This document shows positions 29,020 through 64,000 of a stretch of DNA of 64,000 nucleotides, piece by piece (the first letter of the stretch is position 1; every line of letters begins with the position of its first letter). The stretch is from positions 32,001 to 96,000 of the IMG/VR virus record IMGVR_UViG_3300045988_162176; one strand, given 5' to 3'. Made by a program: the position numbers and the translations under genes. The stretch comes from a virus. The notes under the pieces were generated by a model that saw nothing but the letters and a program-made list of their open reading frames with translations, made no database searches and was not told the DNA's origin.

Positions 29020-29200
29020 AGAAATTGAAATCCTTACGGATAATTCTTACTGCTTCATAATATATGCTTTCACGATTATAAATAATCCGCTATTCGCAGG
29101 TCCTTGTATATTCCACAGTCGTAAATTCCCGAAATAGCCTTCGGTACATACTTATGATTGCTTAATTATACAATTTCATAAGTTAAAGCATCTCTCAAAT
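29020..29200 (-). ncRNA. probable TnpB omega-RNA (reRNA) scaffold
   Basis: By analogy with characterised TnpB loci, the guide RNA overlaps the 3' end of tnpB and the right end; the region is visibly G+C-richer and hairpin-rich (e.g. CCGAAGGCTATTTCGG). Confidence 0.45.
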
Positions 29201-30317
29201 TAAGACTTGCATTGAAATCTCTATCTGCAATATAACCACATGAACAGTAGTATACTCTGTCTGAAAGTTTTAAGTCTTTATTAATATTACCACAACAATG
29301 ACATAATTTAGAAGAGGGATAAAATCTATCTACAATTCTTAATTCAATATCATTTTCGGCACATTTAACTTTTAATTTTGTTCTAAATTCATAAAACTTT
29401 TGTGCGGCAATAGCTTTTGAAAGATACTTATTCTTCATCATACCTGATATATCTAAATTTTCAATAGTTATATAAGATGGCTTGGTTTTTACTATCTCAG
29501 CTATTATTTTATTGATATAATCAGTTCGAATATTAGTTATTTTATGATAAAGTTTTTGTACTTTAAGTTTTTGTTTTTGTATATTTTTTTGAGTGCTGCC
29601 TCCTTTCTTAAAATTTTCATATTTACGAGAAAGACATCGTTGTTCTCTTCGTAATTGTTTTTCTATTTTTTTTATTTCCCTTGATTTGTTGATATTTTTA
29701 TATATTTTACCATTTGAAATAACGGCAAAATCTTTCAAACCCAAATCAATTCCTATACCTTCATTAAAATTGTGCGCAATTTGAATATTTGGCATCTCTA
29801 CTAAAACAGATACAAAATATTTATTTGCTTTAATAGATACTGTGCCGCTCTTAATTTTCAAACCGCTTTTAGATACTGGTATATAACCTTTTTCTTTTAA
29901 ACGAACCCATCCCAAACTTGGAATTTTAATTCTATGTCTTTCACAAAGACAATCGGTTAAATTATTTTTAACAAAATACATTTTTACATCAGATTTTCCT
30001 TTTTTCTTAAATTTAGGATAACCTGATTGATGTTTAAAAAATTTTGTAAAAGCAGCATATCCATCTTCAATAGATTTTTTTACTGCTTTTGAATATACTT
30101 CTTTAATCCATATTTTGTCAGGATTGTTTGGAATATATTCATTATTAAGCCATAAACTAAAACTTTTTCCTGTTACAAATTTTTTATTTCGGTCATATAA
30201 TTCTTTATTATAAGACAAATAAAAATTGTAAATATATCTACAAGTCCCAATTGTTTTATTAATTTGAATCTTTTGTTCTTTTGTTGGATTTATTTCCGTT
30301 TTAAAACTTTTTAACAT
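29166..30317 (-). CDS. tnpB: TnpB (IS200/IS605-family RNA-guided nuclease, OrfB)
   Basis: 383 aa; N-terminal FKTEINPTKEQ; RuvC motifs IGIDLG, ITIENL, ADRDFNASLNL; zinc finger CHCCG...CSCG. Confidence 0.9.
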   Translation of the reverse strand: MLKSFKTEINPTKEQKIQINKTIGTCRYIYNFYLSYNKELYDRNKKFVTGKSFSLWLNNEYIPNNPDKIWIKEVYSKAVKKSIEDGYAAFTKFFKHQSGYPKFKKKGKSDVKMYFVKNNLTDCLCERHRIKIPSLGWVRLKEKGYIPVSKSGLKIKSGTVSIKANKYFVSVLVEMPNIQIAHNFNEGIGIDLGLKDFAVISNGKIYKNINKSREIKKIEKQLRREQRCLSRKYENFKKGGSTQKNIQKQKLKVQKLYHKITNIRTDYINKIIAEIVKTKPSYITIENLDISGMMKNKYLSKAIAAQKFYEFRTKLKVKCAENDIELRIVDRFYPSSKLCHCCGNINKDLKLSDRVYYCSCGYIADRDFNASLNLRDALTYEIV

Positions 30318-48158: not shown

Positions 48159-48524
48159 TTACTTGTTAGAAGTACCAAGTACTCCACGTTCTGCACGATT
48201 CTCAACACGAAGATTCATCCACAATAAGCATTCTTCCAAATGAGTAAGTGCTAGTGCATTTTCACGACAAGCAAATTCACCAGACTGAAAACCCTGAAGA
48301 CGGTCGCGAACAATCTCAAGAAGGTCTGTATCAAGAAGACCATGAATAGAATCAGTTTCCTTACGCGGACCGTTCTGGAAAGCAATCGAATAAGGAGTCT
48401 CATTGCCCTGACCATCAGTTACAATAACATTGTAAACATGGTTGGCATTACCCACACCCTTTTCATCAACTGCATAAACAGTGTTGAGATTATTGTTCTT
48501 CTGAATAGTATTAAGCTTACGCAT
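48159..48524 (-). CDS. hypothetical protein
   Basis: 121-aa ORF; ...FQNGPRKE...CRENALALTHLEECLLWMNLR... looks like a conserved phage family I cannot name. Confidence 0.7.
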   Translation of the reverse strand: MRKLNTIQKNNNLNTVYAVDEKGVGNANHVYNVIVTDGQGNETPYSIAFQNGPRKETDSIHGLLDTDLLEIVRDRLQGFQSGEFACRENALALTHLEECLLWMNLRVENRAERGVLGTSNK

Positions 48525-49678: not shown

Positions 49679-49749
49679 AGCGGCGACTTCGAATCGAACG
49701 AGCATTTCACGGGTTAGAGCCGTGCGCATTGACCATTATACTACGCCGC
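49679..49749 (-). tRNA. suppressor tRNA, anticodon CTA (reads UAG)
   Basis: GCGGCGT AG TATAATGGTCAATGCG C ACGGC(CACGG) CTCTAAC CCGTG...TCGCCGC; perfect 5-bp anticodon stem, loop CT-CTA-AC; the T stem pairs only 3 bp; no encoded CCA. Confidence 0.7.
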
Positions 49750-49860: not shown

Positions 49861-49937
49861 AAAGCTAGACTCATTTTTCAAAACATTTGTAATCCCAAAT
49901 CACAAGTCTCTAAATAATTGCTGTAAGAGTCTACTTT
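49861..49937 (-). ncRNA. E-element 1 (simple)
   Basis: AAAG TAGACTC TTACAGCAA ..45 nt.. GAGTCTA G CTTT; ends 9 nt before tRNA-Arg(TCT). Confidence 0.6.
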
Positions 49938-49954
49938 ATTTTTTTATTTATAAA

Positions 49955-50090
49955 TGGTGGGAATGGAGTGACTCGAACACTCAATTTCCCGATTTGGTGT
50001 TTTAGACAAGTCTTGCACTTGCATTTGAAGTTTTACTTTTAAACTACTAAAACATAAGTCGGGCCCTCTGACCAATTGAGATACATCCCC
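49955..50090 (-). tRNA. tRNA-Ile(TAT)-like interrupted by a 59-nt insertion in the anticodon loop
   Basis: GGGGATG..CCCGA CTTAT[59 nt]AA TCGGG AAATT GAGTG TTCGAGT CACTC CATTCCC A CCA; all four stems pair. Confidence 0.7.
49995..50053 (-). ncRNA. tRNA-shaped insertion (I-type element I1) inside the tRNA-Ile anticodon loop
   Basis: GTTTTAG TA GTTT AAAAGTA AAAC ... CAAGT GCAAG ACTTG . CTAAAAC ACCA: 7-bp acceptor-like helix, D-like and T-like hairpins, 3' ACCA. Confidence 0.6.
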
Positions 50091-50100
50091 ATATAAAATC

Positions 50101-50192
50101 CTAGACACCATATAAAAATCTAAAAAAGTATTTATTCCAATTAAATATATTTCCCAGTATTTTTATTTTAATTGCTGTAAGTGTCTACTTTT
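50101..50192 (-). ncRNA. E-element 2 (simple)
   Basis: AAAAG TAGACAC TTACAGCAA ... GTGTCTA G; ends 10 nt before the interrupted tRNA-Ile. Confidence 0.6.
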
Positions 50193-50204
50193 AACATTAC
50201 TAAT

Positions 50205-50274
50205 CTAAACCCTATCCATAATCTTTTTTTCAAGCAAAAATTAAGTAGTTAAATTGCTGTAAGGGTTTACTTTT
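50205..50274 (-). ncRNA. E-element 3 (simple)
   Basis: AAAAG TAAACCC TTACAGCAA ... GGGTTTA G; directly upstream of E2. Confidence 0.6.
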
Positions 50275-50326
50275 AAATCATCAATAACTTACCATCTTGT
50301 TTGTAGTACTCCAAACAATTCAATCT

Positions 50327-50392
50327 TGCACCGTGGGGGATTCGAACCCCTCTTAAGCCCTCCGTCGAGCGACCCCAACCTTGGTACGGCAC
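50327..50392 (-). ncRNA. tRNA-like element (acceptor stem + T arm, non-canonical body)
   Basis: GTGCCGT...AGGGG TTCGAAT CCCCC ACGGTGC A; only about 66 nt; no convincing D or anticodon arms. Confidence 0.4.
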
Positions 50393-50399
50393 TTATAAA

Positions 50400-50540
50400 C
50401 TAGACGCATAATACTAACAAAGGAGAATCATGAAAGCATCATAAACTAATTAGCAAGGAACAATACCCAAAATCTTTTTTTAAATATTAGAATTTTTTTA
50501 TAGAATTTGATTTTTATTATTGTTTGCTGTAAGCGTCTAC
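50400..50540 (-). ncRNA. E-element 4 (long AT-rich interior)
   Basis: G TAGACGC TTACAGCAA ..110 nt.. GCGTCTA G. Confidence 0.55.
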
Positions 50541-50565
50541 GTTAGATAATTTGAATTGTTGCTTA

Positions 50566-50646
50566 TGGCAGGGATGGAAGGATTCGAACCTTCGAAAAAA
50601 ACTCATAGAGTCAAAGTCTACTGCCTTACCGCTTGGCTACACCCCT
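50566..50646 (-). tRNA. tRNA-Gln(TTG)-like with a type-II-style D arm and an 11-nt unstructured variable region
   Basis: AGGGGTG TA GCC AAGCGGTAA GGC A GTAGA CTTTGAC TCTAT GAGTTTTTTTC GAAGG TTCGAAT CCTTC CATCCCT G CCA. Confidence 0.65.
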
Positions 50647-50653
50647 ATATATT

Positions 50654-50780
50654 TTCCTTAGCTGGTGGTTCCGATTCGCCCATCCAGAACTCCCTACTTG
50701 AGTGCCATTCTATACTCATTAGAGGCTTTCCGACTGAAGGGTATTTTAATTTATTTATCGTCTTTTAAACTACTAAGGAA
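50654..50780 (-). ncRNA. free-standing I-type tRNA-like spacer RNA (I3)
   Basis: 8-bp closing helix TTCCTTAG/CTAAGGAA, then TA GTTT AAAAG..., the same start as the two anticodon-loop insertions; 3' hairpin CTGGATGG..CCACCAG. Confidence 0.5.
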
Positions 50781-50781
50781 T

Positions 50782-50856
50782 TGGAGCAGAAGACGGGAAT
50801 CGAACCCGCACCTACGACCTCGGAAGCCGTTATTCTCACCATTAAACCACTTCTGC
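50782..50856 (-). tRNA. tRNA-Arg(CCG)
   Basis: Canonical 75-nt cloverleaf, loop TTCCGAG, encoded CCA; first gene after promoter 50887-50915. Confidence 0.9.
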
Positions 50857-50886
50857 AAGGTTGGTTTATCTCTCAACCACATCTTA

Positions 50887-50915
50887 AGTATAACATATAC
50901 TTTTCATCTTGTCAA
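50887..50915 (-). promoter_or_regulatory. promoter of tRNA/E-element operon (Arg-CCG to Sup-CTA)
   Basis: TTGACA-17-TATACT. Confidence 0.65.
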
Positions 50916-51106
50916 GTACTTTTTAAAATTTCTTTTTGGAAGATTTTTTCGTTCAAATTAAGGAGGACAAAAACTTTTTGATACCAAAACAACTCAAGAC
51001 CAAGAAGTTCACAAAGAGCATCAACATCTTTCATTGTATACTTGTCTTTCTTTAAAGCTTTAATTTTTTCAACAATTTCCTCTTCTAAGAATAAAAATTC
51101 GTCCAT
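50912..51106 (-). CDS. hypothetical small protein inside the tRNA island
   Basis: 64-aa ORF; RBS AAGAGGA. Confidence 0.55.
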   Translation of the reverse strand: MDEFLFLEEEIVEKIKALKKDKYTMKDVDALCELLGLELFWYQKVFVLLNLNEKIFQKEILKST

Positions 51107-51143
51107 AATAAAAATCCTCTTTTATTTGGGGAAAAATTCTAAA

Positions 51144-51216
51144 ATGAAGTGGTTGGAATCGAACCAACGACCAGCGAAGATACCCCAACGCCGCTCTACC
51201 CCTGAGCTACACTTCA
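51144..51216 (-). tRNA. atypical tRNA or tRNA pseudogene (defective anticodon arm)
   Basis: Good acceptor, D (GCTC AGGGGTA GAGC) and T (GTTGG TTCGATT CCAAC) arms, but the anticodon arm has only GCG/CGC pairing around TTGGGGTATCTT. Confidence 0.45.
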
Positions 51217-51217
51217 A

Positions 51218-51292
51218 TGGAGCTGGATGAGAATTTTGAAATCTCGACTTCCACTTTACAAGAGTGGCGCTCTGCCTCTGAGCTAATCCAGC
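51218..51292 (-). tRNA. tRNA-Thr(TGT)
   Basis: 75-nt cloverleaf, loop CTTGTAA, encoded CCA. Confidence 0.85.
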
Positions 51293-51317
51293 AAATAAAG
51301 GACTAAACAAATAGTCC

Positions 51318-51833
51318 TTATCCACGAGTACGTTTCCAATAATTTGCCATTTTATATTCAGGCTTATTAGTAACTTCCTCGATAAACACTTCAGGAAAAG
51401 GCCAAACATAACTATTAGCTTCTTCCTCAGAATCAAATTCAACTTCGGCATAATAGAAGGCATTATCAGTTCCGCCATCTACAAGATTGAATTCAATTAA
51501 ATAACCATTATTGTAAAGACCTCTATAATCTTTTACAATAGGATTATAACCAAGTTCATTAAAACAGTCAAACAAAGAATTATCTGTAAGATTTGTTTCA
51601 ATTTCAGTACGAGTTAAAGTACCACCAGACTTGAAAGTAAGAGCATCTGGACGATAACCTTTGCCACTTTCAAACCAACGTCTTATACGAATTTCCTGTG
51701 AAATTTTTCCATCAGAATTATATTTGATATTAATATAAATAGTTTTAACAATTCCGACTTCATCAAAATCGACTTTAGGAAAACCAGAGATTAAAAACTT
51801 ACGTTCGATTTCGATTGAATTATTATTACTCAT
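51318..51833 (-). CDS. CYTH-domain (triphosphate tunnel metalloenzyme) protein
   Basis: 171 aa; N-terminal EIERKFL (ExExK signature), later acidic/basic beta-strand pattern (EIRIRR, YAEVEF). Confidence 0.75.
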   Translation of the reverse strand: MSNNNSIEIERKFLISGFPKVDFDEVGIVKTIYINIKYNSDGKISQEIRIRRWFESGKGYRPDALTFKSGGTLTRTEIETNLTDNSLFDCFNELGYNPIVKDYRGLYNNGYLIEFNLVDGGTDNAFYYAEVEFDSEEEANSYVWPFPEVFIEEVTNKPEYKMANYWKRTRG

Positions 51834-51852
51834 TTTTAATCTCCTTTTTCCA

Positions 51853-51947
51853 TGGCACTAGCGGTAAGATTCGAACTCACGAGACGGATACAAGCCGTCA
51901 CACATCATTTCAAGTGATGGCAGTTATGACCACTTCTGTACGCTAGC
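51853..51947 (-). tRNA. tRNA-Ser(TGA)
   Basis: 95 nt, long variable arm, loop CTTGAAA, encoded CCA. Confidence 0.85.
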
Positions 51948-51954
51948 ATTTATT

Positions 51955-52260
51955 TTATGTTTCAGAGAACAGATAGATACCTTTTTCTCCTACATCCTTT
52001 TTAATATCAGTAAATTCTTTATCACTAATTTGAGTCATTGGAGGGAATACACTTTTGAAAGAAGAACAACCATCTTTTTCAATAGTAACCATTTGTTTCT
52101 TACAAACTGGGCAAGTATAATTCCAAGATAAAAAATTAGTTTCATCCTTAGCAATTTTCATCTCTACTACTTGCATTATTCCCTTATTACAATGAGGACA
52201 TCTATAAACAAACTTTTTATTACTTGCTGTCTAATAAATGTAAGTCTTAAAATTAGTCAT
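51955..52260 (-). CDS. double zinc-ribbon small protein, TAG-recoded
   Basis: MTNFKTYIY*TASNKKFVYRCPHCNKGIMQVVEM...CPVCKK; 102 codons. Confidence 0.6.
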
Positions 52261-52284
52261 TAGAATTTACTTCCTTTTATTTTT

Positions 52285-52372
52285 TGGTTGCTGAAGCATG
52301 GGAGTCGAACCCACTATCGTACAGGGTATGAACCTGACATGATTTATAATTATCCGTTTCACTCGCCAGCAA
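52285..52372 (-). tRNA. atypical tRNA, probable anticodon CAT (Met/Ile2), with extra nucleotides between the D and anticodon arms
   Basis: Starts directly after the CCA of tRNA-Cys; TCAGG TTCATAC CCTGT arm, GTGGG TTCGACT CCCAT T arm, acceptor TTGCTG/CAGCAA, CCA. Confidence 0.5.
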
Positions 52373-52448
52373 TGGTGGACCTGACAAGACTTGAACTTGC
52401 GACTTCCTGCGTGCAAAGCAGACACTCTCCCAACTGAGTTACAGGCCC
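52373..52448 (-). tRNA. tRNA-Cys(GCA)
   Basis: Canonical 76-nt cloverleaf, loop TTTGCAC. Confidence 0.9.
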
Positions 52449-52989
52449 ATAATTAAACTATACTCCCAAATAGCAACAGAGTTTTTTACAAGAACTCTAT
52501 AACTTGGCTTTTGTTGTTCATCCTCAGCACCACCTGTTAGGAGCAATAAGCAGTATGCTCGGCTTATTGTGTTTTAAGGTTACATGACCCATAACCTCAA
52601 TACCTACCCCGATTTAGTTGCAGTAATCAGAGTTTTTGTTTGAACAAGTACGCAACCACTTGTCCCCGTAAACACGGCACAGACTTCTCCGTATAGCTTT
52701 TCGCTGTAGGTTTTTGATGTTACATTCGCACCCTAACATCTCTCGCCATATATCTGTGTTCTGCCCATGTGCGGCTCATAGCCTTTTTCAGCTTGTGACA
52801 GCTTACTTTGCGTTCGAGAACCATTCACTTGTTCTCTACTCCAAGACTTCGGACGGGCGTTGGGGCTTTAGCTTAACGGACTAAAGGTGAGTTCAAATAT
52901 ATGAAACACCGACGAGGCTTTAGCCATCCTTGCTGAATCGGGCAGTTTAATATAAGTTATATTCTCTGTCTGCCAATTGATATATAACT
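52449..52989 (-). ncRNA. large (about 0.54 kb) structured RNA between tRNA-Leu(CAA) and tRNA-Cys (L2)
   Basis: No ORF on the minus strand; markedly G+C-richer; many local and long-range complementary segments. Confidence 0.55.
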
Positions 52990-53074
52990 TGGTGGCTAAG
53001 GTGGGACTTGAACCCACATCTCTTTCGAGGGTTGTACTTGAAGCAACTGCGTATGCCAATTTCGCCACTCAGCC
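52990..53074 (-). tRNA. tRNA-Leu(CAA)
   Basis: 85 nt, long variable arm, loop TTCAAGT, TTCAAGT T-loop, CCA. Confidence 0.85.
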
Positions 53075-53087
53075 ATAATAATTAATA

Positions 53088-53209
53088 CTAGACACGTTTT
53101 TTTTGATATCGGTCATCCAGACATCCCCCGAAGGAGACGGAAGAATCGAACTTCCCCGTTTAATTTTCCATATTAAAGAATCAAGTAATTTTGCTGTGCG
53201 TGTCTACTT
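53088..53209 (-). ncRNA. E-element 5 with a closed-acceptor tRNA-like domain
   Basis: AAG TAGACACG CACAGCAA ... GGAAG TTCGATT CTTCC GTCTCC TTCG GGGGAT ... CGTGTCTA G; ends 12 nt before tRNA-Leu(CAA). Confidence 0.6.
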
Positions 53210-53260
53210 GAAAGGAATTTATATTTGCCTATTAGAAAAATAGGAGCGTCAATCTATTAA

Positions 53261-53392
53261 CTAGACTCATTTTACAAAATCTGTTGCTCTACCAGTTGAG
53301 CTAACTCCCGATGGTCGGGAGCAGAGGATTCGAACCTCCAACACACAGGCCCATAGCATTTGTGATTGTAAAGTTGCTGTTAGAGTCTACTT
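53261..53392 (-). ncRNA. E-element 6 enclosing the permuted tRNA-Gln
   Basis: AAG TAGACTC TAACAGCAA C TTTACAA ... [permuted tRNA] ... TTGTAAA AT GAGTCTA G. Confidence 0.6.
53273..53349 (-). tRNA. circularly permuted tRNA-Gln(TTG)-like module (3' half, CCA, T, 5' half) inside E-element 6
   Basis: CCTGT GTGTT GGAGG TTCGAAT CCTCT GCTCCCG A CCA T CGGGAGT TA GCTC AACTGGTA GAGC A ACAGA TTTTGTA; the acceptor halves are mutually complementary. Confidence 0.6.
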
Positions 53393-53466
53393 GAAAGGAA
53401 TGCTTTTATGAACAATAAAAAATGAACATTAGCTTACAAATAAATTTGTATCTTTACCATGTTTTT

Positions 53467-53495
53467 ACTATAACATAAAATTTTCATTTTGTCAA
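53467..53495 (-). promoter_or_regulatory. promoter of the E6-E5-tRNA-Leu-L2-tRNA-Cys unit
   Basis: TTGACA-17-TATAGT. Confidence 0.65.
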
Positions 53496-53518
53496 GAATT
53501 TTAAAACAAAAATTTTAC

Positions 53519-53603
53519 TGGTGGGTGAGGAAGGTGCCGACCCTTCTACTCCGTTAGGAAAGAGTTTTACAGACTCCCGTGTTTGCCGATTCACTACTCA
53601 CCT
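53519..53603 (-). tRNA. tRNA-Tyr(GTA)
   Basis: 85 nt, long variable arm, loop CTGTAAA; unusual T-loop GTCGGCA. Confidence 0.75.
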
Positions 53604-53633
53604 ATTTAATTATTTTCCTTTTTTAGAAAGGGG

Positions 53634-53698
53634 CTAGACGCTTTTTGTGTATTCTTATTTAACAGATAAGTACATTTAAATTGCTGTAAGCGTCTACT
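53634..53698 (-). ncRNA. E-element 7 (simple, with an anticodon-arm-like hairpin)
   Basis: AG TAGACGC TTACAGCAA ... CTTAT CTGTTAA ATAAG ... GCGTCTA G. Confidence 0.55.
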
Positions 53699-53732
53699 AT
53701 TGAAGTCATTACAAAATTAGCATTTCTGCTAT

Positions 53733-53808
53733 TGGTGCTCATGGAGGGACTCGAACCCTCGACAGACGGCTTAAAAGGCCGCTACTCTACCAACTGAGTT
53801 ACATGGGC
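53733..53808 (-). tRNA. tRNA-Lys(TTT)
   Basis: 76 nt, loop CTTTTAA, one C-A mismatch in the acceptor stem. Confidence 0.85.
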
Positions 53809-53815
53809 ATAAATA

Positions 53816-53951
53816 CTAGAGACATTGTTGTTATGGACTCCTGCCTTAAACCACTTGGCTACATACTTCAACTGAAGACGTTCGGATTCGAACCGAAGAA
53901 TGGGAGTTTGGCTTCTAACATACTTTCAGAATTGCTGTTAGTCTCTACTTT
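53816..53951 (-). ncRNA. E-element 8 with a closed-acceptor tRNA-like domain
   Basis: AAAG TAGAGAC TAACAGCAA ... ACTCC CATTC TTCGG TTCGAAT CCGAA CGTCTTC AGTT GAAG.. GCC AAGTGGTTTAA GGC A GGAGT ... GTCTCTA G. Confidence 0.6.
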
Positions 53952-54119
53952 ATAAATATCTTATTGAAAGGAAATTATTCATATCAGATAGAGAGAAAGG
54001 AGAAATAATATCTCGTCAAATAATTAATTCTTAACCCTTCGATAGATTTAAGTTCCCCTCATTTAAATCCGATAAAACTTACTCACACTATCATAAGAAC
54101 GGATTTCTGATTTGAATAA

Positions 54120-54195
54120 TGGTACTCGGTACGGGGTTCGAACCCGTGCTACTGACGTGAAAGGCCAGTGTCTTAGCCCACTTGACTAACCGAGC
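54120..54195 (-). tRNA. tRNA-Glu(TTC)
   Basis: 76 nt, loop CTTTCAC. Confidence 0.85.
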
Positions 54196-54203
54196 ATATT
54201 AAC

Positions 54204-54324
54204 CTAGACTCTTTTGCGTATTATTCACCACAGAGCGCCCTCTGACGAGAATCGAACTCGCTAATGATTGTTTTGCAGACAATTGTGTTAACCTTTTTAA
54301 GAATTTGCTGTAAGAGTCTACTTT
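54204..54324 (-). ncRNA. E-element 9 with a closed-acceptor tRNA-like domain
   Basis: AAAG TAGACTC TTACAGCAA ... GCGAG TTCGATT CTCGT CAGAG GGCG CTCTG TGG... GAGTCTA G; ends 8 nt before tRNA-Glu. Confidence 0.6.
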
Positions 54325-54353
54325 ATTATTCAGGAGGTTTTACCTATGCACTT

Positions 54354-54382
54354 ATTATAACATATCATCTTTAAGATGTCAA
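54354..54382 (-). promoter_or_regulatory. promoter of the E9-tRNA-Glu-E8-tRNA-Lys-E7-tRNA-Tyr unit
   Basis: TTGACA-17-TATAAT. Confidence 0.65.
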
Positions 54383-54494
54383 CCACTTATTAAAATTTTC
54401 TTTTTGCTTTTTATCTTTTTGAGAAGTTTTTATTTTGCTCTTTTCTTAAGATGTATTTATCTTACCACACTTTTAGATTTCTGTCAAGACTTTA

Positions 54495-54887
54495 TTAGAA
54501 ATTTTCTTTTTCGAAATGATTAGCAAAAGCTATATAATTTTGACTTTTAATAAGCTCCTCAAAAACCTCTACAGGAGGCTCAACAAAGTTTCTAATAAGG
54601 TCTACTAATTCTATCATAGAATTAGCTTCGAGGGTAAAGATTAAACCATCATATGGAATACATCTATAAACCCATTTGCCTGACGTACTTTGATAACAAT
54701 CGGCATTAGTCCAAACTTGAGTAGCATCTAAAATACGAGATTCCCAAGGATATTTAATAATTTCAGAACCTCTTTTATACCAATAATTAAATTCTTTATC
54801 TTTTAAAATATCATTGGTTTCAAGCTCGCACTCGTCGCCATTACAAATAGAATAATGACCGACAATTTTAAATGAAGAAGTATCCAT
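54495..54887 (-). CDS. hypothetical protein
   Basis: 130-aa ORF. Confidence 0.7.
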   Translation of the reverse strand: MDTSSFKIVGHYSICNGDECELETNDILKDKEFNYWYKRGSEIIKYPWESRILDATQVWTNADCYQSTSGKWVYRCIPYDGLIFTLEANSMIELVDLIRNFVEPPVEVFEELIKSQNYIAFANHFEKENF

Positions 54888-55159
54888 TACTCAGTAACCT
54901 CAGCGTAAGTTAATTCCATAATATCAGGCTTAACGGGATAAAATTCACCCTTAATTCCCTTAACAATGTAATCTCCTACAGAAGCACAGTGATAACCTTC
55001 AAGAGTATAAATAATAAGATTCTTTTTAATTCCCTTCATTGTATGTTCAGTAGTAACACAACAATGAGCGCCAACGAAACTTGTAATTTCTTCTTCGTTA
55101 TCGCCAGTCCAGATAATTGCTTGAATAGCAATAGGTTTCTTAATATATGTCTTAATCAT
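54887..55159 (-). CDS. hypothetical small protein
   Basis: 90-aa ORF. Confidence 0.7.
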   Translation of the reverse strand: MIKTYIKKPIAIQAIIWTGDNEEEITSFVGAHCCVTTEHTMKGIKKNLIIYTLEGYHCASVGDYIVKGIKGEFYPVKPDIMELTYAEVTE

Positions 55160-55175
55160 ATCTCTTCACCTTGAC

Positions 55176-55472
55176 TCATCTATATTTATACTTAAGTTGA
55201 CAAGACTTCAACCAAATCCAAAACAAAAGAGAAGCGTCAATTCCATCTACTTCATTCATAATGCGATAATTATCAGAATCTTTTTCAGGATAGCCATAAA
55301 CTACTTGTGCATCATAGCACTAAACAAGATACTTACAATTTGTCTTAGATATAATAGCAAGCTCACTTATATAATTAAATTTATCAACTTTCTTTTCGTA
55401 ATAAGTCCCGAATTTATCTGAAGAGATAAGTTTATATCCATGTTTAGCAAACTGTTTGTCAATATAATCCAT
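55176..55472 (-). CDS. hypothetical small protein, TAG-recoded
   Basis: MDYIDKQFAKHGYKLISSDKFGTYYEKKVDKFNYISELAIISKTNCKYLV*CYDAQVVYGYPEK...; TAG at 55320-55322; 99 codons. Confidence 0.55.
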
Positions 55473-55835
55473 AAAAATACCCTTTTATTTTATTAAATAT
55501 ATAAGGAACAAAAACTGATAACTACTGACAGACCAGCTTTTCACTTATCTGTCCTCGGTTTGGCTGAGGAGGGGCTATTCCTTATAAGGGGCTTACACTC
55601 AACTATCTTGGTCATTTTCATTATCAGTTTTGCTCATTGCATAAGGGTTTAACGTACCCAGTTAAGCAAAGCAACGGTCTTTCTATTGTTACCAGTCCAT
55701 CAGACTTGGAGGGCGGTTCAGTGTCGAATACATTGTAACCAGCTAAACTGTATTCCAAGATAAGTTTCGTACTATATCTTACGGATTTCTTGTTTTTTTA
55801 AAAAGACATCAAGAAATATCTAACCATTCTGTCTT
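55473..55835 (-). ncRNA. structured non-coding region L4
   Basis: About 360 nt without an ORF between E13 and the CDS start at 55472; hairpins (GACAGA..TCTGTC, TCCTC..GAGGA, repeated AGCCCCT). Confidence 0.35.
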
Positions 55836-55936
55836 TTGGAGCGGCATCGAAGAATCGAACTCCAAACATAATAAAAGTATTGTCCATGGCTACTTTTATT
55901 ATTACACCAGTTGCCGCATATTTGCTGTCTCTCCAA
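55836..55936 (-). ncRNA. E-like element 13 enclosing a normal-order tRNA-like RNA with a 12-bp arm
   Basis: TTGGAG AG ACAGCAA ATAT GCGGCAA CTGGTG TAATAATAAAAGTA GCCATGGACAA TACTTTTATTATG TT TGGAG TTCGATT CTTCG ATGCCGC TCCAA. Confidence 0.4.
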
Positions 55937-56010
55937 GCTGTCACCGCTAATATGGTTGTAGGTTCTGGACGGTCTGAACTTAGGTGCGCCATACACACAT
56001 CCTAACATTA

Positions 56011-56123
56011 AGCGATACTCCATCTGTTAGGCGAACTTCCATCTTTATAAGACGGTATCGTAGTTACTGGACCTCATAATTGGATTCGAACCAACTTCCT
56101 CTCCCGATGTGGCTGTTATCGCT
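56011..56123 (-). ncRNA. E-element 12 (divergent) with a tRNA-like domain
   Basis: AGCGATA ACAGCC ... GTTGG TTCGAAT CCAAT TTATGAG ..21 nt.. CTTATAA ... TATCGCT. Confidence 0.45.
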
Positions 56124-56509
56124 AAGGAGCTACCTTAGTGTTTATTCAACATCAGTTATCGAGAATGCACCATTACACTAATGGGGATATAAATGTTATA
56201 GACCTTTTAACTATAACTCACAGGCTTTCCCTTATTCAAACAAGGTGGCGGGACGTGTGCTGTGTTTTTAAAAGAAAGTCCTTGTTATACTTTTTCTTTC
56301 AAGGATTTAGTGGTAAGAACTTTTCTTGACCATAGGCGTTCTCAAACCTACTCCTTTACCTATATGCTCAACATAAATTAGGTTAAGCATCTCAACCTTG
56401 AGGTCAACTGGGGTATCTTACAGCCGTTCGGTTTATTTTTAGTTTGAGTAAACCTTCCTCAAACACTCCTTCATCCACTTTTTTACAAGGATACGGAATC
56501 CACGAGTTT
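56124..56509 (-). ncRNA. structured non-coding region L3
   Basis: About 385 nt without an ORF between tRNA-Ser(GCT) and E12; dense hairpins (GTTTGAG..CTCAAAC, ATGCTTAAC..GTTGAGCAT, GTTATAG..CTATAAC). Confidence 0.4.
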
Positions 56510-56597
56510 TGGCGCAGATAACAGGATTCGAACCTGTATTACCTTACGGTAAGCGGCTGTAGCAGAGCCGTGAGATAGCCAATTACTCCATATCTGC
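56510..56597 (-). tRNA. tRNA-Ser(GCT)
   Basis: 88 nt, long variable arm CTTACCGTAAGG, loop CTGCTAC. Confidence 0.85.
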
Positions 56598-56609
56598 ATA
56601 ATGAGCAAT

Positions 56610-56737
56610 CTTGACACTTTTTTCTAGCCAACCACGGTTAACCATTCCTTGCTCAAGGGATACGTTAATAAGGAGTCGAACCTTACACGACGTTATTCCA
56701 AAAACATAAAATAAATTTGCTGTGAGTGTCAACTTTT
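56610..56737 (-). ncRNA. E-element 10 with a tRNA-like domain
   Basis: AAAAG TTGACAC TCACAGCAA ... TAAGG TTCGACT CCTTA TTAAC..CCTT GAGC AAGG..GTTAA ... GTGTCAA G; ends 12 nt before tRNA-Ser(GCT). Confidence 0.55.
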
Positions 56738-56755: not shown

Positions 56756-56833
56756 TGGTGGGAATAACAGGACTCGAACCTGTAAGCCTCCGCCGTGTAA
56801 AGGCGGCATTCTAACCAGTTGAACTATACTCCC
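56756..56833 (-). tRNA. tRNA-Val(TAC)
   Basis: 78 nt, loop TTTACAC. Confidence 0.85.
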
Positions 56834-56972
56834 ATATAATATTGGTTTTTACGTTAAATACCAGAGGACTTTCGTATTTTACCAACAAACCTCACGTTAC
56901 TTGACTTATTTATAGACGTTGAGTAATTACGTCTCAACAATACATTTATTAAGATAAGAAAGGAAAATTATC

Positions 56973-58254: not shown

Positions 58255-58728
58255 TTACTTTTTCACCGAAGTCACGCCATTAAAATCATACAAACGTACA
58301 ATATGGCTTAGTCCTAAAGTGTCAGAAATATCAGCACTAATGATAGACCAATCTCCACCAGCAAGACCACACCCAATCATATAAGGCATAGCAATCTCTT
58401 CTCCAATAGGAATCATTTCACGAATCTTAAGAAGACATTCATGAAAATATTCATAGTTGGTGTTTACATTTGGTCCACCAATGCCAATCTGAGAAAACAT
58501 ATTAAGAAAAACTTTATCTTTGTTTTCCTCAATTCGAAGAACTTTACCATAAAGCTCTTCAGGAGTATGATAACTACAAAACTTATTATACTCCAAATAA
58601 ACATGAGGATAATTCTTCTTAATTTGAAGAGCAACACCAGCGCCCATTACACCAAAGGTATTAGCCTGATGACAAATATACTTTGCCGAAGTCTTAAGGA
58701 CATCGCCTTGAATAATAGACACTGACAT
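58255..58728 (-). CDS. macro-domain protein (ADP-ribose binding/hydrolase fold)
   Basis: 157 aa; IIQGDVL...YICHQANTFGVMGAGVALQIKKNYP...IGCGLAGGDW. Confidence 0.75.
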   Translation of the reverse strand: MSVSIIQGDVLKTSAKYICHQANTFGVMGAGVALQIKKNYPHVYLEYNKFCSYHTPEELYGKVLRIEENKDKVFLNMFSQIGIGGPNVNTNYEYFHECLLKIREMIPIGEEIAMPYMIGCGLAGGDWSIISADISDTLGLSHIVRLYDFNGVTSVKK

Positions 58729-60796: not shown

Positions 60797-61546
60797 TTAT
60801 CTTTTGATTTTGTTTACAATTTCATTTAGGAATTTTGCTGGGGAAGAATTTTCTTCAAGATAATTGCTTCCATTAATAAAACTATCAAAAGACTCGTCAA
60901 AAGCTACTTCTATCGACTTTTTTTTATTGTCAATTAAATCATCAAATTTTTGATATGCCAAACCAAAATTATATCCCCAATTATAAGACCTTATGCGATT
61001 ATTGTTTAAACTCGTTGATGCTAAAGCTCCAAATTCACAAGCTAATCCAAAAAGCACGGCAGTTTTCCTACTATTTACTTCTGCTATATCAAAAGTCTTA
61101 AAAGTTTCTAGATACTGACCAGAAGCCATTAATTGAATAGTATTAGAAAGTGTTTGTACAGCCTCAATTTTATTGCCTAAAGGAAGATAACATTCAGTTA
61201 AATTTTTAAAAGCGGCAGCAATTAAACCCCCTCCAGCCAAAATTGCCGCAGCCTCACCAAATTTTTTGTGAGTTGTTTCTCTATCACGACGATAATTATC
61301 ATTATCCATACAAGGTAAATCATCATAAATCAAGCTCATATTGTGAATATATTCTATAGCCATTGCATAAGAAATTGCATCCTGTGCATTTCCTCCATAA
61401 AATTCACACCATGCAAGCGTCATATATGGTCTAAGACGTTTACCTTCTTGTAACGCATAATTCTCTACAGGCCCAAGATAATCTTCAAATTTATTTTCTT
61501 GTAAATAGTCTTCAATTATTTTCTCGTATTTTTTTTGCAAATCCAT
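60797..61546 (-). CDS. polyprenyl (farnesyl/geranylgeranyl) diphosphate synthase
   Basis: Start at MDLQKKYEK; first Asp-rich motif LIYDDLPCMDNDNYRR, second FDDLID, KRLRP near the N-terminus. Confidence 0.85.
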   Translation of the reverse strand: MDLQKKYEKIIEDYLQENKFEDYLGPVENYALQEGKRLRPYMTLAWCEFYGGNAQDAISYAMAIEYIHNMSLIYDDLPCMDNDNYRRDRETTHKKFGEAAAILAGGGLIAAAFKNLTECYLPLGNKIEAVQTLSNTIQLMASGQYLETFKTFDIAEVNSRKTAVLFGLACEFGALASTSLNNNRIRSYNWGYNFGLAYQKFDDLIDNKKKSIEVAFDESFDSFINGSNYLEENSSPAKFLNEIVNKIKR

Positions 61547-61601
61547 GTTATTTTCTCTCAATTCAATTTGTTTAATTCAAAGTCTATTTTGTAAAAATGA
61601 A

Positions 61602-62004: not shown

Positions 62005-62304
62005 CTAAAATTCTGACTTTTTCAATGTAGGAGTAATATCTAAATTAGAATTTGCACTTGTACGAGTATAAGTAGAACCAGCCCAATCTGACCCCCAGAT
62101 GTCAGCCTTGGTAGTAACATACTTCTTATATTTGCAAGAAAGTTTTACAGAAAGACACTCAGGATAATCTTTAATACTTTTTTTGAGCTCATTAAAAGAT
62201 TCTTCTGCTTTGACCACATCCTCTGTGTATTTACAAATTGCTTCGTTTTCACATCCTGAACAAACACTTGGAATATATTCTCGACCTGTATTAAGTACCA
62301 TCAT
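62005..62304 (-). CDS. hypothetical Cys-containing protein
   Basis: 99-aa ORF; ends at TAG (read-through adds 2 codons). Confidence 0.65.
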   Translation of the reverse strand: MMVLNTGREYIPSVCSGCENEAICKYTEDVVKAEESFNELKKSIKDYPECLSVKLSCKYKKYVTTKADIWGSDWAGSTYTRTSANSNLDITPTLKKSEF

Positions 62305-62818
62305 TGTTTTCTTCTCCTTCCTTATAATATTCTTGTAAAATCAAATTATAACATAGCGTATTAGGATGATAATATGGATTATCATAAATCTGACTATCAT
62401 CCCCAGTAAAACATTTCATAATACCAGCACAAACACCAGAAGAACGACTAATGCCAGCATTACAATGAACAATAATTACATCAACCTTATCCCACCACTT
62501 ATTGACAAAATCAATAACTTTTTTAGCATCTTCTTTTGTCATCAGTTGATAAATACGAGACTCATAAACAAAACCATCTGAATTAGTATAGTTTTCTACA
62601 ATTAGACCTTCATCCTTCTTCCAGTACTGCATACCCTTATAGGGCTGAATATCATCAAAGAAAAGAGATAATTGAGCCTTAATATTATTAAATTTATTAG
62701 GAAGTTGACGCACGCCAATCTCGATAGAATCATTAATGCTAATTACAACAGAATTCTCTTCATGAGAACCATAGCTATATTTAACACAATCTCTACGACT
62801 CATAACCTTAAACTGCAT
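62291..62818 (-). CDS. Cys-based (PTP/dual-specificity-like) phosphatase
   Basis: 175 aa; active-site signature VHCNAGISRS (HCx5R[ST]). Confidence 0.75.
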   Translation of the reverse strand: MQFKVMSRRDCVKYSYGSHEENSVVISINDSIEIGVRQLPNKFNNIKAQLSLFFDDIQPYKGMQYWKKDEGLIVENYTNSDGFVYESRIYQLMTKEDAKKVIDFVNKWWDKVDVIIVHCNAGISRSSGVCAGIMKCFTGDDSQIYDNPYYHPNTLCYNLILQEYYKEGEENNDGT

Positions 62819-63275: not shown

Positions 63276-64000
63276 TTAAACAGACTCATTGGTAAATACC
63301 TTCTGACTAATAAAGTCTTTACCTTCTTCACTTGTTAAAATTGGCATTTCATAATCAAGAATCCACTTATAACGAATAGCCTCCTGACCATCTTTGCCAA
63401 TAACAGTAGTAGGAACACGATATGCACAAGTACCACGTTTCTCTACTGTTGTATAATCGTTCCAGTTTACACCCTTTTCAGTAAACATCTTATCCTGTAA
63501 TTTGGTAGTATTAATACCATGAAGTTCTTTTTGAGAATACAAAGATTGAGCAACTGCCTGAATAGAATTTCGAGTACAATCCTGCTGTCTCCAAACAAAA
63601 TAATTATGCACTTCAAAGGCAGGGACAACAAATACTCTACTATCAAAGGTGGGCATTTCTTTTCCCTTACGAACCATTTTCCAATCGTAAGAATCTTGAT
63701 TCATATTAAAGATATCTAAGGTTGTATCAATAATAGTATTCTCGGCAAAATAATTATTAAACCAAAGAGTACAAAGAGCCGCAGATGTACTAACAATTTT
63801 TTGAATATTATTGTCAAACCATGGCTGAGAATTTCTTTCGCTCTGAATCATGACAAGAGAAATTTCATCTGACTCAACATAACCAAACTTAACATTTGGA
63901 ATAATTTCACAGAGCTTAAGCATAGTCTGTTGCATGGTTTTAACAAAAATAGGGTCAAAAGGTTTCTTCATACCACGGCAGAATGAATGAAAATGAGCTC
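63276..64000 (-). CDS. Thg1-like protein (tRNA-His guanylyltransferase family 3'-5' nucleotidyltransferase), N-terminus beyond the window
   Basis: GYVESDEISLV, FDSRVFVVP..EVHNYFVWRQQDCTRNS match Thg1/TLP motifs; the frame stays open upstream of the listed Met to position 64000 (..AHFHSFCRGMKKPFDP). Confidence 0.8.
   Translation of the reverse strand, partial: AHFHSFCRGMKKPFDPIFVKTMQQTMLKLCEIIPNVKFGYVESDEISLVMIQSERNSQPWFDNNIQKIVSTSAALCTLWFNNYFAENTIIDTTLDIFNMNQDSYDWKMVRKGKEMPTFDSRVFVVPAFEVHNYFVWRQQDCTRNSIQAVAQSLYSQKELHGINTTKLQDKMFTEKGVNWNDYTTVEKRGTCAYRVPTTVIGKDGQEAIRYKWILDYEMPILTSEEGKDFISQKVFTNESV

Follow-up and report, generated by a model that had tools for sequence, protein, structure and literature searches.

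The 541-nt segment described here, part of a tRNA array within the 64,000-nt stretch of viral DNA that was analysed (the window), is probably a gene in its own right, encoding a large structured non-coding RNA that belongs to an undescribed family, carried by one clade of phages and resembling the GOLLD and ROOL RNAs without being a member of either family. The preliminary description of the segment, as a large structured RNA that lies in a phage tRNA array and has no ORF, is borne out, both in that no ORF in it exceeds 66 aa and in that related copies display comparative covariation. The RNA is conserved in its relatives and does not match a known housekeeping RNA in Rfam 15. To our knowledge, large and intricate bacterial or phage RNAs of unknown function are rare, the main examples being OLE, GOLLD, ROOL, HEARO and raiA, all of which have led to new biology.

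Genomic setting and distribution

The window has 17 tRNA genes, every one of them on the minus strand, with Rfam and the tRNA calls in agreement, and the structured segment lies on that strand too (Table 1). Of the two neighbours originally assigned to it, tRNA-Leu(CAA) stands, with its encoded CCA end abutting the RNA, whereas the gene on the 3' side is not tRNA-Cys but tRNA-Ala, as follows from its UGC anticodon together with a G3:U70 pair. The segment had also been characterized as G+C-rich, which is correct in relative terms only: its G+C content is 41.8% (44.2% in the core), compared with 32.4% for the whole window and 30-33% for the neighbouring ORFs, and a value some 10 points over the 32% background is the level of the tRNAs themselves. 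The longest ORF in the segment under the standard code (66 aa) overlaps a tRNA, and recoding of TAG, TGA or TAA does not produce a reading frame across the whole segment.

With respect to transcription, the site from which the segment was proposed to be co-transcribed with the tRNAs (promoter-like site 1 in Table 1) is the best sigma-70-like site of the area, scoring 11/12, and a search of the minus strand between this site and the RNA found no terminator-like sites. Co-transcription is plausible on these grounds, and the site is a candidate start of a polycistronic tRNA transcript. The hexamers of a second promoter-like site, inside the 5' module, are kept in most of the relatives that bear the module, and an independent transcript could thus start there in phages of the window type.

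The array contains other inter-tRNA spacers of several hundred nucleotides, and Y-RNA-like modules are dispersed through it, with YrlA-like Rfam matches in a neighbouring spacer. TnpB-type mobile DNA is present elsewhere in the phage genome. In addition to the protein genes listed in Table 1, the neighbourhood encodes a macro domain, a dual-specificity phosphatase and a DUF2828/VWA protein.

Table 1. Positions of the RNA, its parts and nearby genes in the window
Feature	Position	Strand	Remarks
Structured RNA segment	52449-52989	minus	541 nt; tRNA-Leu(CAA) on 5' side, tRNA-Ala(UGC) on 3' side
Variable 5' accessory module	52866-52989	minus	124 nt; own hairpins with compensatory changes
Conserved core	52475-52865	minus	391 nt; common to all architectures
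Core 5' domain	52642-52865	minus	core nt 1-224; helices A-J; most of the covariation; deletions tolerated
Core 3' domain	52500-52641	minus	core nt 225-366; helices K, L, M, N and long unpaired stretches
Terminal hairpin T	52475-52499	minus	AGAGUU-loop-AACUCU; 3' end of the conserved unit
Linker and tRNA 5' remnant	52449-52474	minus	26 nt; GGGAGUAUAGUUUAAU; resembles the start of tRNA-Val or tRNA-Asn
Helix J loop	52651-52657	minus	(G/A)GUUGCG; strand of PK1
Helix K loop	52616-52622	minus	UGCAACU; PK1 partner of the J loop
PK2 5' strand	52841-52848	minus	AGUCUUGG; candidate long-range pairing with a bulged U
PK2 3' strand	52501-52507	minus	CCAAGUU; also within one copy of the 10-nt direct repeat
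UGGUG	52528-52532	minus	invariant, unpaired
tRNA-Leu(CAA)	52990-53074	minus	constant 5' neighbour in all relatives
tRNA-Ala(UGC)	52373-52448	minus	adjoins the 3' end of the 541-nt segment
Promoter-like site 1	53467-53495	minus	TTGACA-17-TATAGT, TG-extended
Promoter-like site 2	52949-52976	minus	TTGGCA-16-TATATT, 10/12; inside the 5' module
Suppressor-type tRNA(CUA)	49679-49749	minus	
CYTH protein	51318-51833		
Thg1-like enzyme	63276-63971		
Acb2/Tad1-like protein	48159-48524		sponge

Related loci were reached by two routes, i.e. with the CYTH protein as a query, which gave 15 IMG/VR contigs of 108-221 kb, and with a loop-anchored DNA pattern, which gave 18 contigs from human-gut metagenomes. 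In every intact related locus the element is located directly 3' of tRNA-Leu(CAA), and its carriers form one clade of ~100-220-kb human-gut phages. Most copies are >90% identical to one another. The more divergent copies L061, L063 and L064 come from contigs with CYTH homologues that are 84-89% identical, and the three most divergent copies were reached through CYTH synteny, not through the pattern scans. In a further contig, L055, the CYTH protein of which is 64% identical, a small ORF-like stretch upstream of tRNA-Ala stands in place of the RNA, although the contig is cut at this point.

Searches beyond these loci returned the same clade. Degenerate DNA scans, employing four patterns in which stems were left free and loops fixed, covered IMG/VR, 241 M metagenome records and 185,579 species genomes; all of the matches belong to the same clade, without a distant homologue, and the lone match among the species genomes is a 123,382-nt phage contig that was binned in an uncultured Clostridium MAG. 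This binning is a pointer to a Clostridium-like Firmicute host, and the phage encodes an LLH-type holin. BLAST against 50,697 phage records recovered the flanking tRNAs only, no cultured or deposited phage matching the RNA at the DNA level, and nhmmer searches of 69 loci and the window with a profile of the core found no paralogue or diverged copy in other spacers. Judging from these sequences, and within the reach of the loop and junction patterns used, the family is real but narrow. No description of the RNA was found in Rfam 15 or in the open literature as searched by sequence string. Two large screens for structured-RNA candidates, one on viruses and one on human microbiomes, gave no match, although fragments may sit among their thousands of unnamed candidates; the motifs of the viral screen are at most 151 nt long, with an average of 67.

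Architecture and secondary structure

The ~540 nt initially taken as a single RNA unit are better regarded as a composite, in which a conserved 391-nt core is preceded by a variable 5' module and followed by a 26-nt tail. The spacer that follows tRNA-Leu has five architectures among the relatives, measuring 430, 466, ~522, 574 and 788 nt. In most relatives, the divergent L061 and L063 among them, a ~30-nt leader takes the place of the 5' module; its overlapping stems, UAGUCU/AGACUA and GAUGAU/AUCAUC, would give an H-type pseudoknot, and the second of them covaries, being GAUAAA/UUUAUC in L061. In some other relatives the 5' module is lengthened by a 51-nt internal duplication, and one lineage has a unique 321-nt insertion in it. 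At the opposite end, the tRNA remnant in the tail is a 90% match to positions 56819-56838 of the window, and it occupies the place at which a whole tRNA-Asn, tRNA-Met or tRNA-Leu(AAG) begins in relatives. The constancy of tRNA-Leu, together with the variety of 3' neighbours (tRNA-Ala, Asn, Met or Leu-AAG), implies that the upstream partner of the RNA is fixed and the downstream partner changeable. The array as a whole is mosaic: the spacer comes in five architectures and tRNA-Leu in two alleles, fragments of tRNAs are present and the 3' neighbours shift. The core stays intact through all of these rearrangements.

The secondary structure model, which was derived from the variants, comprises 15 helices (A to N and T) and two candidate pseudoknots, PK1 and PK2. 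On a MAFFT alignment of 19 distinct cores, 99.0% of the 1794 cells of the model are standard pairs, and 11 pairs are changed on both sides, compared with 2.9±1.1 after shuffling (none of 500 shuffles reached 11) and with 0-3 in a control in which the partners were slid by 1-3 columns. MAFFT misaligns three divergent rows in columns 51-188; re-placing their strands by hand raises the number of doubly changed pairs to 16 and the proportion of paired cells to 99.4%. The covariation is located in helices B, E, G, J and L and in the outer pair of helix A, and much of it comes from three divergent lineages (L052, L061 and L063). Helix J is found in five sequence states, all of which are paired, around an invariant loop, and the loop of helix K is invariant as well. 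Because the 164 G-U cells of the model would be C-A mismatches on the opposite strand, only the minus strand is consistent with the model. Helices C, D and H appear to be dispensable decorations, since L052 has lost all three and L061 also lacks D. The folding energy of the single sequence is weakly better than that of shuffled sequences (z = -1.8).

RNAalifold independently finds helices B, C, G, H, I, J, K, L, M and T. It also proposes an alternative long-range closure, pairing nucleotides 2-15 and 24-27 of the core with 323-344, and another partner for nucleotides 183-188. The divergent copies break several of these alternatives, including 8-337, 5-340 and 173-188. Helices A and E are preferred because the divergent copies break 5-340, 8-337 and 174-178/183-187 but contain compensating changes in A and E. 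The closure of the structure is nonetheless ambiguous, in that the RNAalifold alternative is a competitor of helices A and N and of PK2, with 24-27/323-326 as the rival of helix N plus PK2.

The 3' half of the core is the most highly conserved non-coding stretch in a 13-kb comparison with 12 relatives, in which positions 52500-52600 are 99.6% identical compared with ~90% in the flanking genes and spacers. The changes in the 3' domain among the 19 copies comprise one compensated pair and two G-U to A-U changes in helix L, one U-A to U-G change in helix N and one G/A exchange in a loop. With so little covariation in this domain, helices K and M and both pseudoknots stay at the level of candidates. 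Its unpaired stretches are A-rich or purine-rich (AAACAAAAA, AGGUAUU, AAAACAC and UGGUGCUGAGGAUGAACAACAAAAGCCAAGUUA). We presume that this nearly invariant domain is the functional part of the RNA.

PK1, a candidate kissing interaction, consists of seven pairs between the loops of hairpins J and K; position 209 is G or A, either of which pairs with U250. By our estimate, the separation of the two hairpins by 9 nt is marginal for a coaxial intramolecular kiss, and the contact could therefore equally be intermolecular. PK2 (nucleotides 18-25 with 359-365), for which a rival pairing exists, is possible in 18 of the 19 copies. One consistent G-U to A-U change is observed in it, G19 being A in L061 and still pairing with U364; the L052 lineage, which recurs in several samples, lacks two to three of the PK2 pairs. 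A segment of the form UAUGG...CCUAC resembles the 11-nt tetraloop receptor and is a plain helix in L052. The unpaired UGGUG of the 3' domain is complementary to the CACCA-3' ends of the phage tRNAs for Leu, Tyr, Lys, Ala and Val. When the 3' domain was paired with each of the 17 phage tRNAs in RNAduplex, only long duplexes without meaning resulted, which were uninformative.

Known RNA families and alternative explanations

Rfam 15 (4227 models) was searched at gathering score with the whole window and with five relatives, and at the looser threshold of E≤10 with a 1.3-kb stretch, a 452-nt stretch and three variant loci. At gathering score, tRNAs and RAGATH-18 were found elsewhere in the window and nothing in the RNA segment. 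As a positive control, the same tool identified GOLLD (RF02032) in mycobacteriophage PegLeg at 216.4 bits. The ROOL, GOLLD, group I intron, RNase P and tmRNA models are all without a match in the region, and the RNA is hence not recognisable as any of these.

The individual candidates were rejected as follows. A GOLLD assignment falls below the gathering score of 150 bits, with no match at E≤10, and ROOL likewise has no covariance-model match at E≤10, the positive control being for GOLLD only. The proposed resemblance to the P7/Q-R-S elements of group I introns is not supported: no group I model matches at E≤10, the flanks are a complete tRNA-Leu with its CCA end and then a tRNA fragment and a complete tRNA-Ala instead of split exons, and evidence for a P7 helix or G-site was not found. 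For RNase P RNA, the bacterial A and B, archaeal and nuclear models have no match at E≤10, the topology differs, and the L052 variant departs from it. ARAGORN identified no tmRNA, and the Rfam tmRNA matches are T-arm fragments of 11-17 nt outside the region. The wcaG model (RF01761) aligns with positions 52463-52558 at 22.4 bits, compared with a gathering score of 42 (E = 0.05-0.15); hairpin 1 of this alignment contains four non-canonical pairs and cuts across helix M.

It is unlikely that the segment is a non-functional spacer in a recombining tRNA array, for example what is left of a mobile element, or hairpins whose sole role is to guide processing of the neighbouring tRNAs. Such an origin would fit with the mosaic nature of the array, with its other long spacers, with the TnpB-type DNA in the genome and with the 10-nt direct repeat around most of the element. 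The repeat was part of the preliminary description and is present (52498-52507 and 52983-52992), but it is missing where relatives lack the 5' module, as most do, and we estimate the chance of one 10-mer repeat within 540 nt as ~0.1, which is not improbable. Moreover, neither a transposase nor an intron ORF was identified, nor are there terminal inverted repeats, and a spacer of this type would not be expected to have a core that is intact throughout the array's rearrangements, a 3' half so strongly conserved, and 11 to 16 pairs with double substitutions.

We similarly regard as distinctly unlikely that the element is, instead of one large RNA, a cis-acting leader or sensor of the tRNAs downstream of it, or a precursor from which several small RNAs are made. 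The position of the terminal hairpin immediately ahead of the next tRNA, the sub-threshold resemblance to wcaG and a T-box-like GGUGGUGC, which resembles the tRNA-end-binding bulge of T-box leaders, are consistent with regulation of this type. In a cis-acting element, however, the downstream gene would be the expected constant, whereas here it varies (Ala, Asn, Met or Leu-AAG) and the upstream tRNA-Leu is the constant one; there is also no terminator/antiterminator pair, and the wcaG hairpin 1 is unsupported given its non-canonical pairs.

Membership of GOLLD or ROOL had been suggested on the basis of size and position, and the setting and two-domain layout do agree with it, but membership itself is contradicted by the covariance searches. 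We give little credence to the proposal that the RNA is a very divergent GOLLD or ROOL beyond the reach of present covariance models. In its favour are the common niche (a phage tRNA island), the near size, a layout with conservation in the 3' part and variation in the 5' part, and the string AAGUCUU, which the RNA has in common with the GOLLD consensus. Against it, the models have no match at E≤10 even over 452 nt, when the PegLeg control reaches 216 bits, and the order of helices differs; six conserved strings of the RNA were not found in published ROOL and GOLLD alignments (PMC12286853), which is weak evidence as these files are gapped and partial.

A reduced RNase P-like RNA, or another binder of tRNA 3' ends, that matures or protects the phage tRNAs is very improbable. 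The string CCGAAGUCUUGG...ACAAAAGCCAAGUUA resembles CR-I and CR-V of the RNase P RNAs of E. coli and B. subtilis, and GGGGUAGG and GAUGAA are likewise reminiscent of RNase P strings. PK2 would then be a P4-like helix, with G19-to-A still paired, and both the complementarity of UGGUG to CACCA-3' and the location in a tRNA operon would be in keeping with a tRNA substrate. Yet these are short motif resemblances, no RNase P model matches at E≤10, and elements equivalent to P1-P3, CR-II and CR-III are absent; furthermore, the P4-like 5' strand lies inside the local helix A, and PK2 loses two to three pairs in L052. Finally, a coding function for the segment, in the form of a small protein or several, perhaps read with a stop codon reassigned, is barely credible, since, despite the suppressor tRNA(CUA) and a 95-codon stop-to-stop frame that TAG readthrough would open on the minus strand (52583-52867), no frame crosses the 3' domain, relatives differ by gaps of 2, 1 and 3 nt, and substitutions track base-pairing, not codon periodicity.

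Proposed role and relation to known RNAs

For the favoured reading, that of a stand-alone structured RNA, we propose that the RNA is transcribed within a polycistronic tRNA precursor and, in phages of the window type, maybe also from the internal promoter-like site. An RNA of ~430-540 nt would probably then be freed by tRNA-maturing enzymes, with its 5' end generated through 3'-end trimming of tRNA-Leu and its 3' end when RNase P cuts at the 5' end of the tRNA that follows, a mode of release that would parallel that of the stable RNAs encoded in the tRNA cluster of T4. The invariant 3' domain would carry the activity and the 5' domain would serve as a scaffold. By analogy with GOLLD and ROOL, the product would most likely be a stable RNA-only or RNA-protein particle that builds up during infection, and its target the tRNA/translation apparatus or a tRNA-directed host defence. 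The complementary loops of hairpins J and K could link molecules head to tail. The nature of the neighbouring genes, i.e. those for the Thg1-like, CYTH, macro domain, dual-specificity phosphatase, Acb2/Tad1-like and DUF2828/VWA proteins and the Y-RNA-like modules, suggests, by inference only, a role in tRNA upkeep or counter-defence.

A bolder proposal, which we consider a long shot, is that the RNA is a new kind of machine working directly on tRNAs, either a reduced RNase P-like ribozyme or a binder of CCA ends; the latter would catch tRNA 3' ends with its invariant 3' domain, by means of the P4-like pseudoknot and UGGUG, and would assemble via head-to-tail J/K kissing into rings or cages like those of GOLLD and ROOL.

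The RNA is a compact (~400 nt) candidate, derived from the human gut, for structural and functional work, and natural deletion variants already indicate which of its helices are dispensable. Given its neighbouring genes, a function in the upkeep of tRNAs or in counter-defence merits testing. Were phage tRNA islands to house a third large RNA, unrelated to GOLLD and ROOL, this would suggest that the niche selects for such RNAs.

Among known systems, the wcaG motif, which also occurs in phages (cyanophages), is similar to the last ~96 nt of the RNA (52463-52558) in that GUGGUGC..GAU, GCC..GUU and a hairpin with a U/A-rich loop align weakly; it differs in being a ~100-nt 5'-UTR element rather than a portion of a 400-nt RNA. 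Bacterial RNase P RNA is comparable in its size of ~400 nt and its link to tRNAs, and the bulged-U long-range helix PK2 recalls P4, but its S-domain elements are missing here and the pairing that resembles P4 does not hold in one lineage. A parallel with respect to biogenesis is offered by species 1 and 2 of T4 (the band C and D RNAs), stable non-tRNA RNAs in the T4 tRNA cluster that are co-transcribed with tRNAs and cut out by the tRNA-processing machinery, and the function of which is still unknown. In contrast to the RNA described here, these are ~120-140 nt long, and no sequence relation between the two is expected.

ROOL is likewise an ornate RNA of ~500-600 nt, encoded in phages and prophages, often by tRNA islands, and has no associated protein; the lack of a model match and a different distribution set the present RNA apart from it. 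GOLLD and ROOL are both phage or prophage RNAs that occur near tRNA islands and form RNA-only cages of unknown function (PMC12286853), the cages being homo-oligomers, i.e. 14-mers or 8-mers (PMC12286853). For the present RNA, known from its sequence, the sole lead with respect to oligomerization is the complementarity of the J and K loops. GOLLD model matches in phages are 410-490 nt long, compared with 391 nt for the core described here, and in PegLeg the GOLLD RNA lies between tRNAs, ending 9 nt before tRNA-Gln; the location in a phage tRNA array is thus common to GOLLD and to the RNA between tRNA-Leu(CAA) and tRNA-Ala. The hosts differ, GOLLD being found in Lactobacillales, Mycobacterium, Caulobacter, Vibrio and marine phages and the present RNA in one clade of human-gut phages, and so do the order of helices and the conserved strings; the A-rich linker that follows the first long hairpin of the GOLLD consensus, and the GOLLD pseudoknot, have no counterpart here. 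GOLLD does, however, combine a universally conserved 3' region with a less conserved 5' region (PMC12286853), and the RNA described here, with its invariant 3' and variable 5' regions, has the same arrangement, which is a resemblance of layout and not one of homology.

Unusual tRNAs and tRNA-like elements

Full-length tRNAs matched by Rfam, not reported by ARAGORN, recur in related phage contigs; with lengths of 120-157 nt, they look like tRNA genes carrying 50-85-nt insertions or introns. Immediately 3' of tRNA-Ala lies a tRNA-like element with no call from either ARAGORN or Rfam. Its T arm (GUGGG-UUCGACU-CCCAU) is normal, its anticodon arm carries CAU and its acceptor stem (UUGCUG/CAGCAA) comes with an encoded CCA, but its D region is long and aberrant. 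In L055, a distant relative, tRNA-Ala is followed by the first nucleotides of this element, at which point the L055 sequence examined ends. L055 also shares the tRNA with a CUA anticodon, which is an amber suppressor and hints that TAG is reassigned in part of the phage genome.

The second ORF-poor stretch is mosaic across relatives and includes T-arm/acceptor-like pieces (e.g. GGAAGUUGGUUCGAAUCCAAUU...GGUCCA). It gave no Rfam match at E≤1, and may harbour more unusual tRNA-like or large RNAs.

Relatives L001-L015 and the more divergent L061 and L063 lack the 124-nt accessory module of the window's large structured RNA, and have a leader of ~30 nt, UAGUCUUGAUGAUAGACUAACAAAACAUCAUC, between tRNA-Leu and the RNA core. 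As judged from its sequence, this leader can form an H-type pseudoknot, the predicted second stem of which covaries (GAUAAA/UUUAUC in L061).

Features in the tRNA array, elsewhere in the window and in relatives
Feature	Position	Strand	Remarks
GTAGACNNNNACAGCAA sites	10 within 49918-56733; 1 at 37816-37832	minus	motif match, ≤1 mismatch
YrlA (Y RNA-like) match	53268-53366		permuted tRNA-like module; sub-threshold in Rfam (39.8 bits vs threshold 69)
DUF2828/DUF7788/VWA ORF	36030-37796
Full-length tRNA	49958-50090	minus	Rfam only
Full-length tRNAs in relatives	L001:10961-11117, L001:11612-11744, L003:6909-7030		Rfam only
tRNA-like element	52283-52372	minus
tRNA, anticodon CUA	49679-49749	minus	ARAGORN label 'Pyl'
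ORF-poor stretch	55430-56509	minus	~1 kb; G+C raised to ~40%
TnpB-type ORF	29166-30317	minus	OrfB_IS605, Cas12f1-like TNB and HTH domains
RAGATH-18 RNA	29047-29119	minus	Rfam 59.9 bits, above gathering score
Acb2/Tad1-hairpin-like protein	48159-48524	minus
Protein with homologues named CYTH or adenylate cyclase	51318-51833	minus
Macro domain, weak	58255-58728	minus
Polyprenyl synthetase	60797-61561	minus
Dual-specificity-phosphatase-like protein	62291-62818	minus
Thg1-like tRNA-His guanylyltransferase	63276-63971	minus

Auxiliary genes and a TnpB-type locus

Among the auxiliary genes around the array, the Acb2/Tad1-hairpin-like protein is a candidate sponge for nucleotides used in defence signalling. 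The TnpB-type ORF lies directly upstream of the RAGATH-18 RNA, and the two together (29047-30317) resemble a TnpB of the IS605 family and the accompanying guide-RNA region, carried within the phage genome.

A repeated motif and Y-RNA-like modules

The motif GTAGACNNNNACAGCAA occurs at 11 minus-strand sites when up to one mismatch is allowed (0.04 expected). At two or more of these sites, the UAGACNNN segment of the motif pairs with a NNNGUCUAG directly 5' of the following tRNA, and one such stem surrounds a permuted tRNA-like module. The sub-threshold YrlA match is seen again in relatives. One copy of the motif is located immediately upstream of the DUF2828/DUF7788/VWA ORF; members of this family are annotated as RNA-binding proteins in some records. 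The motifs, the YrlA-like module and this ORF could together make up a Y-RNA/Ro-like system of the phage, its elements interspersed among the tRNAs.
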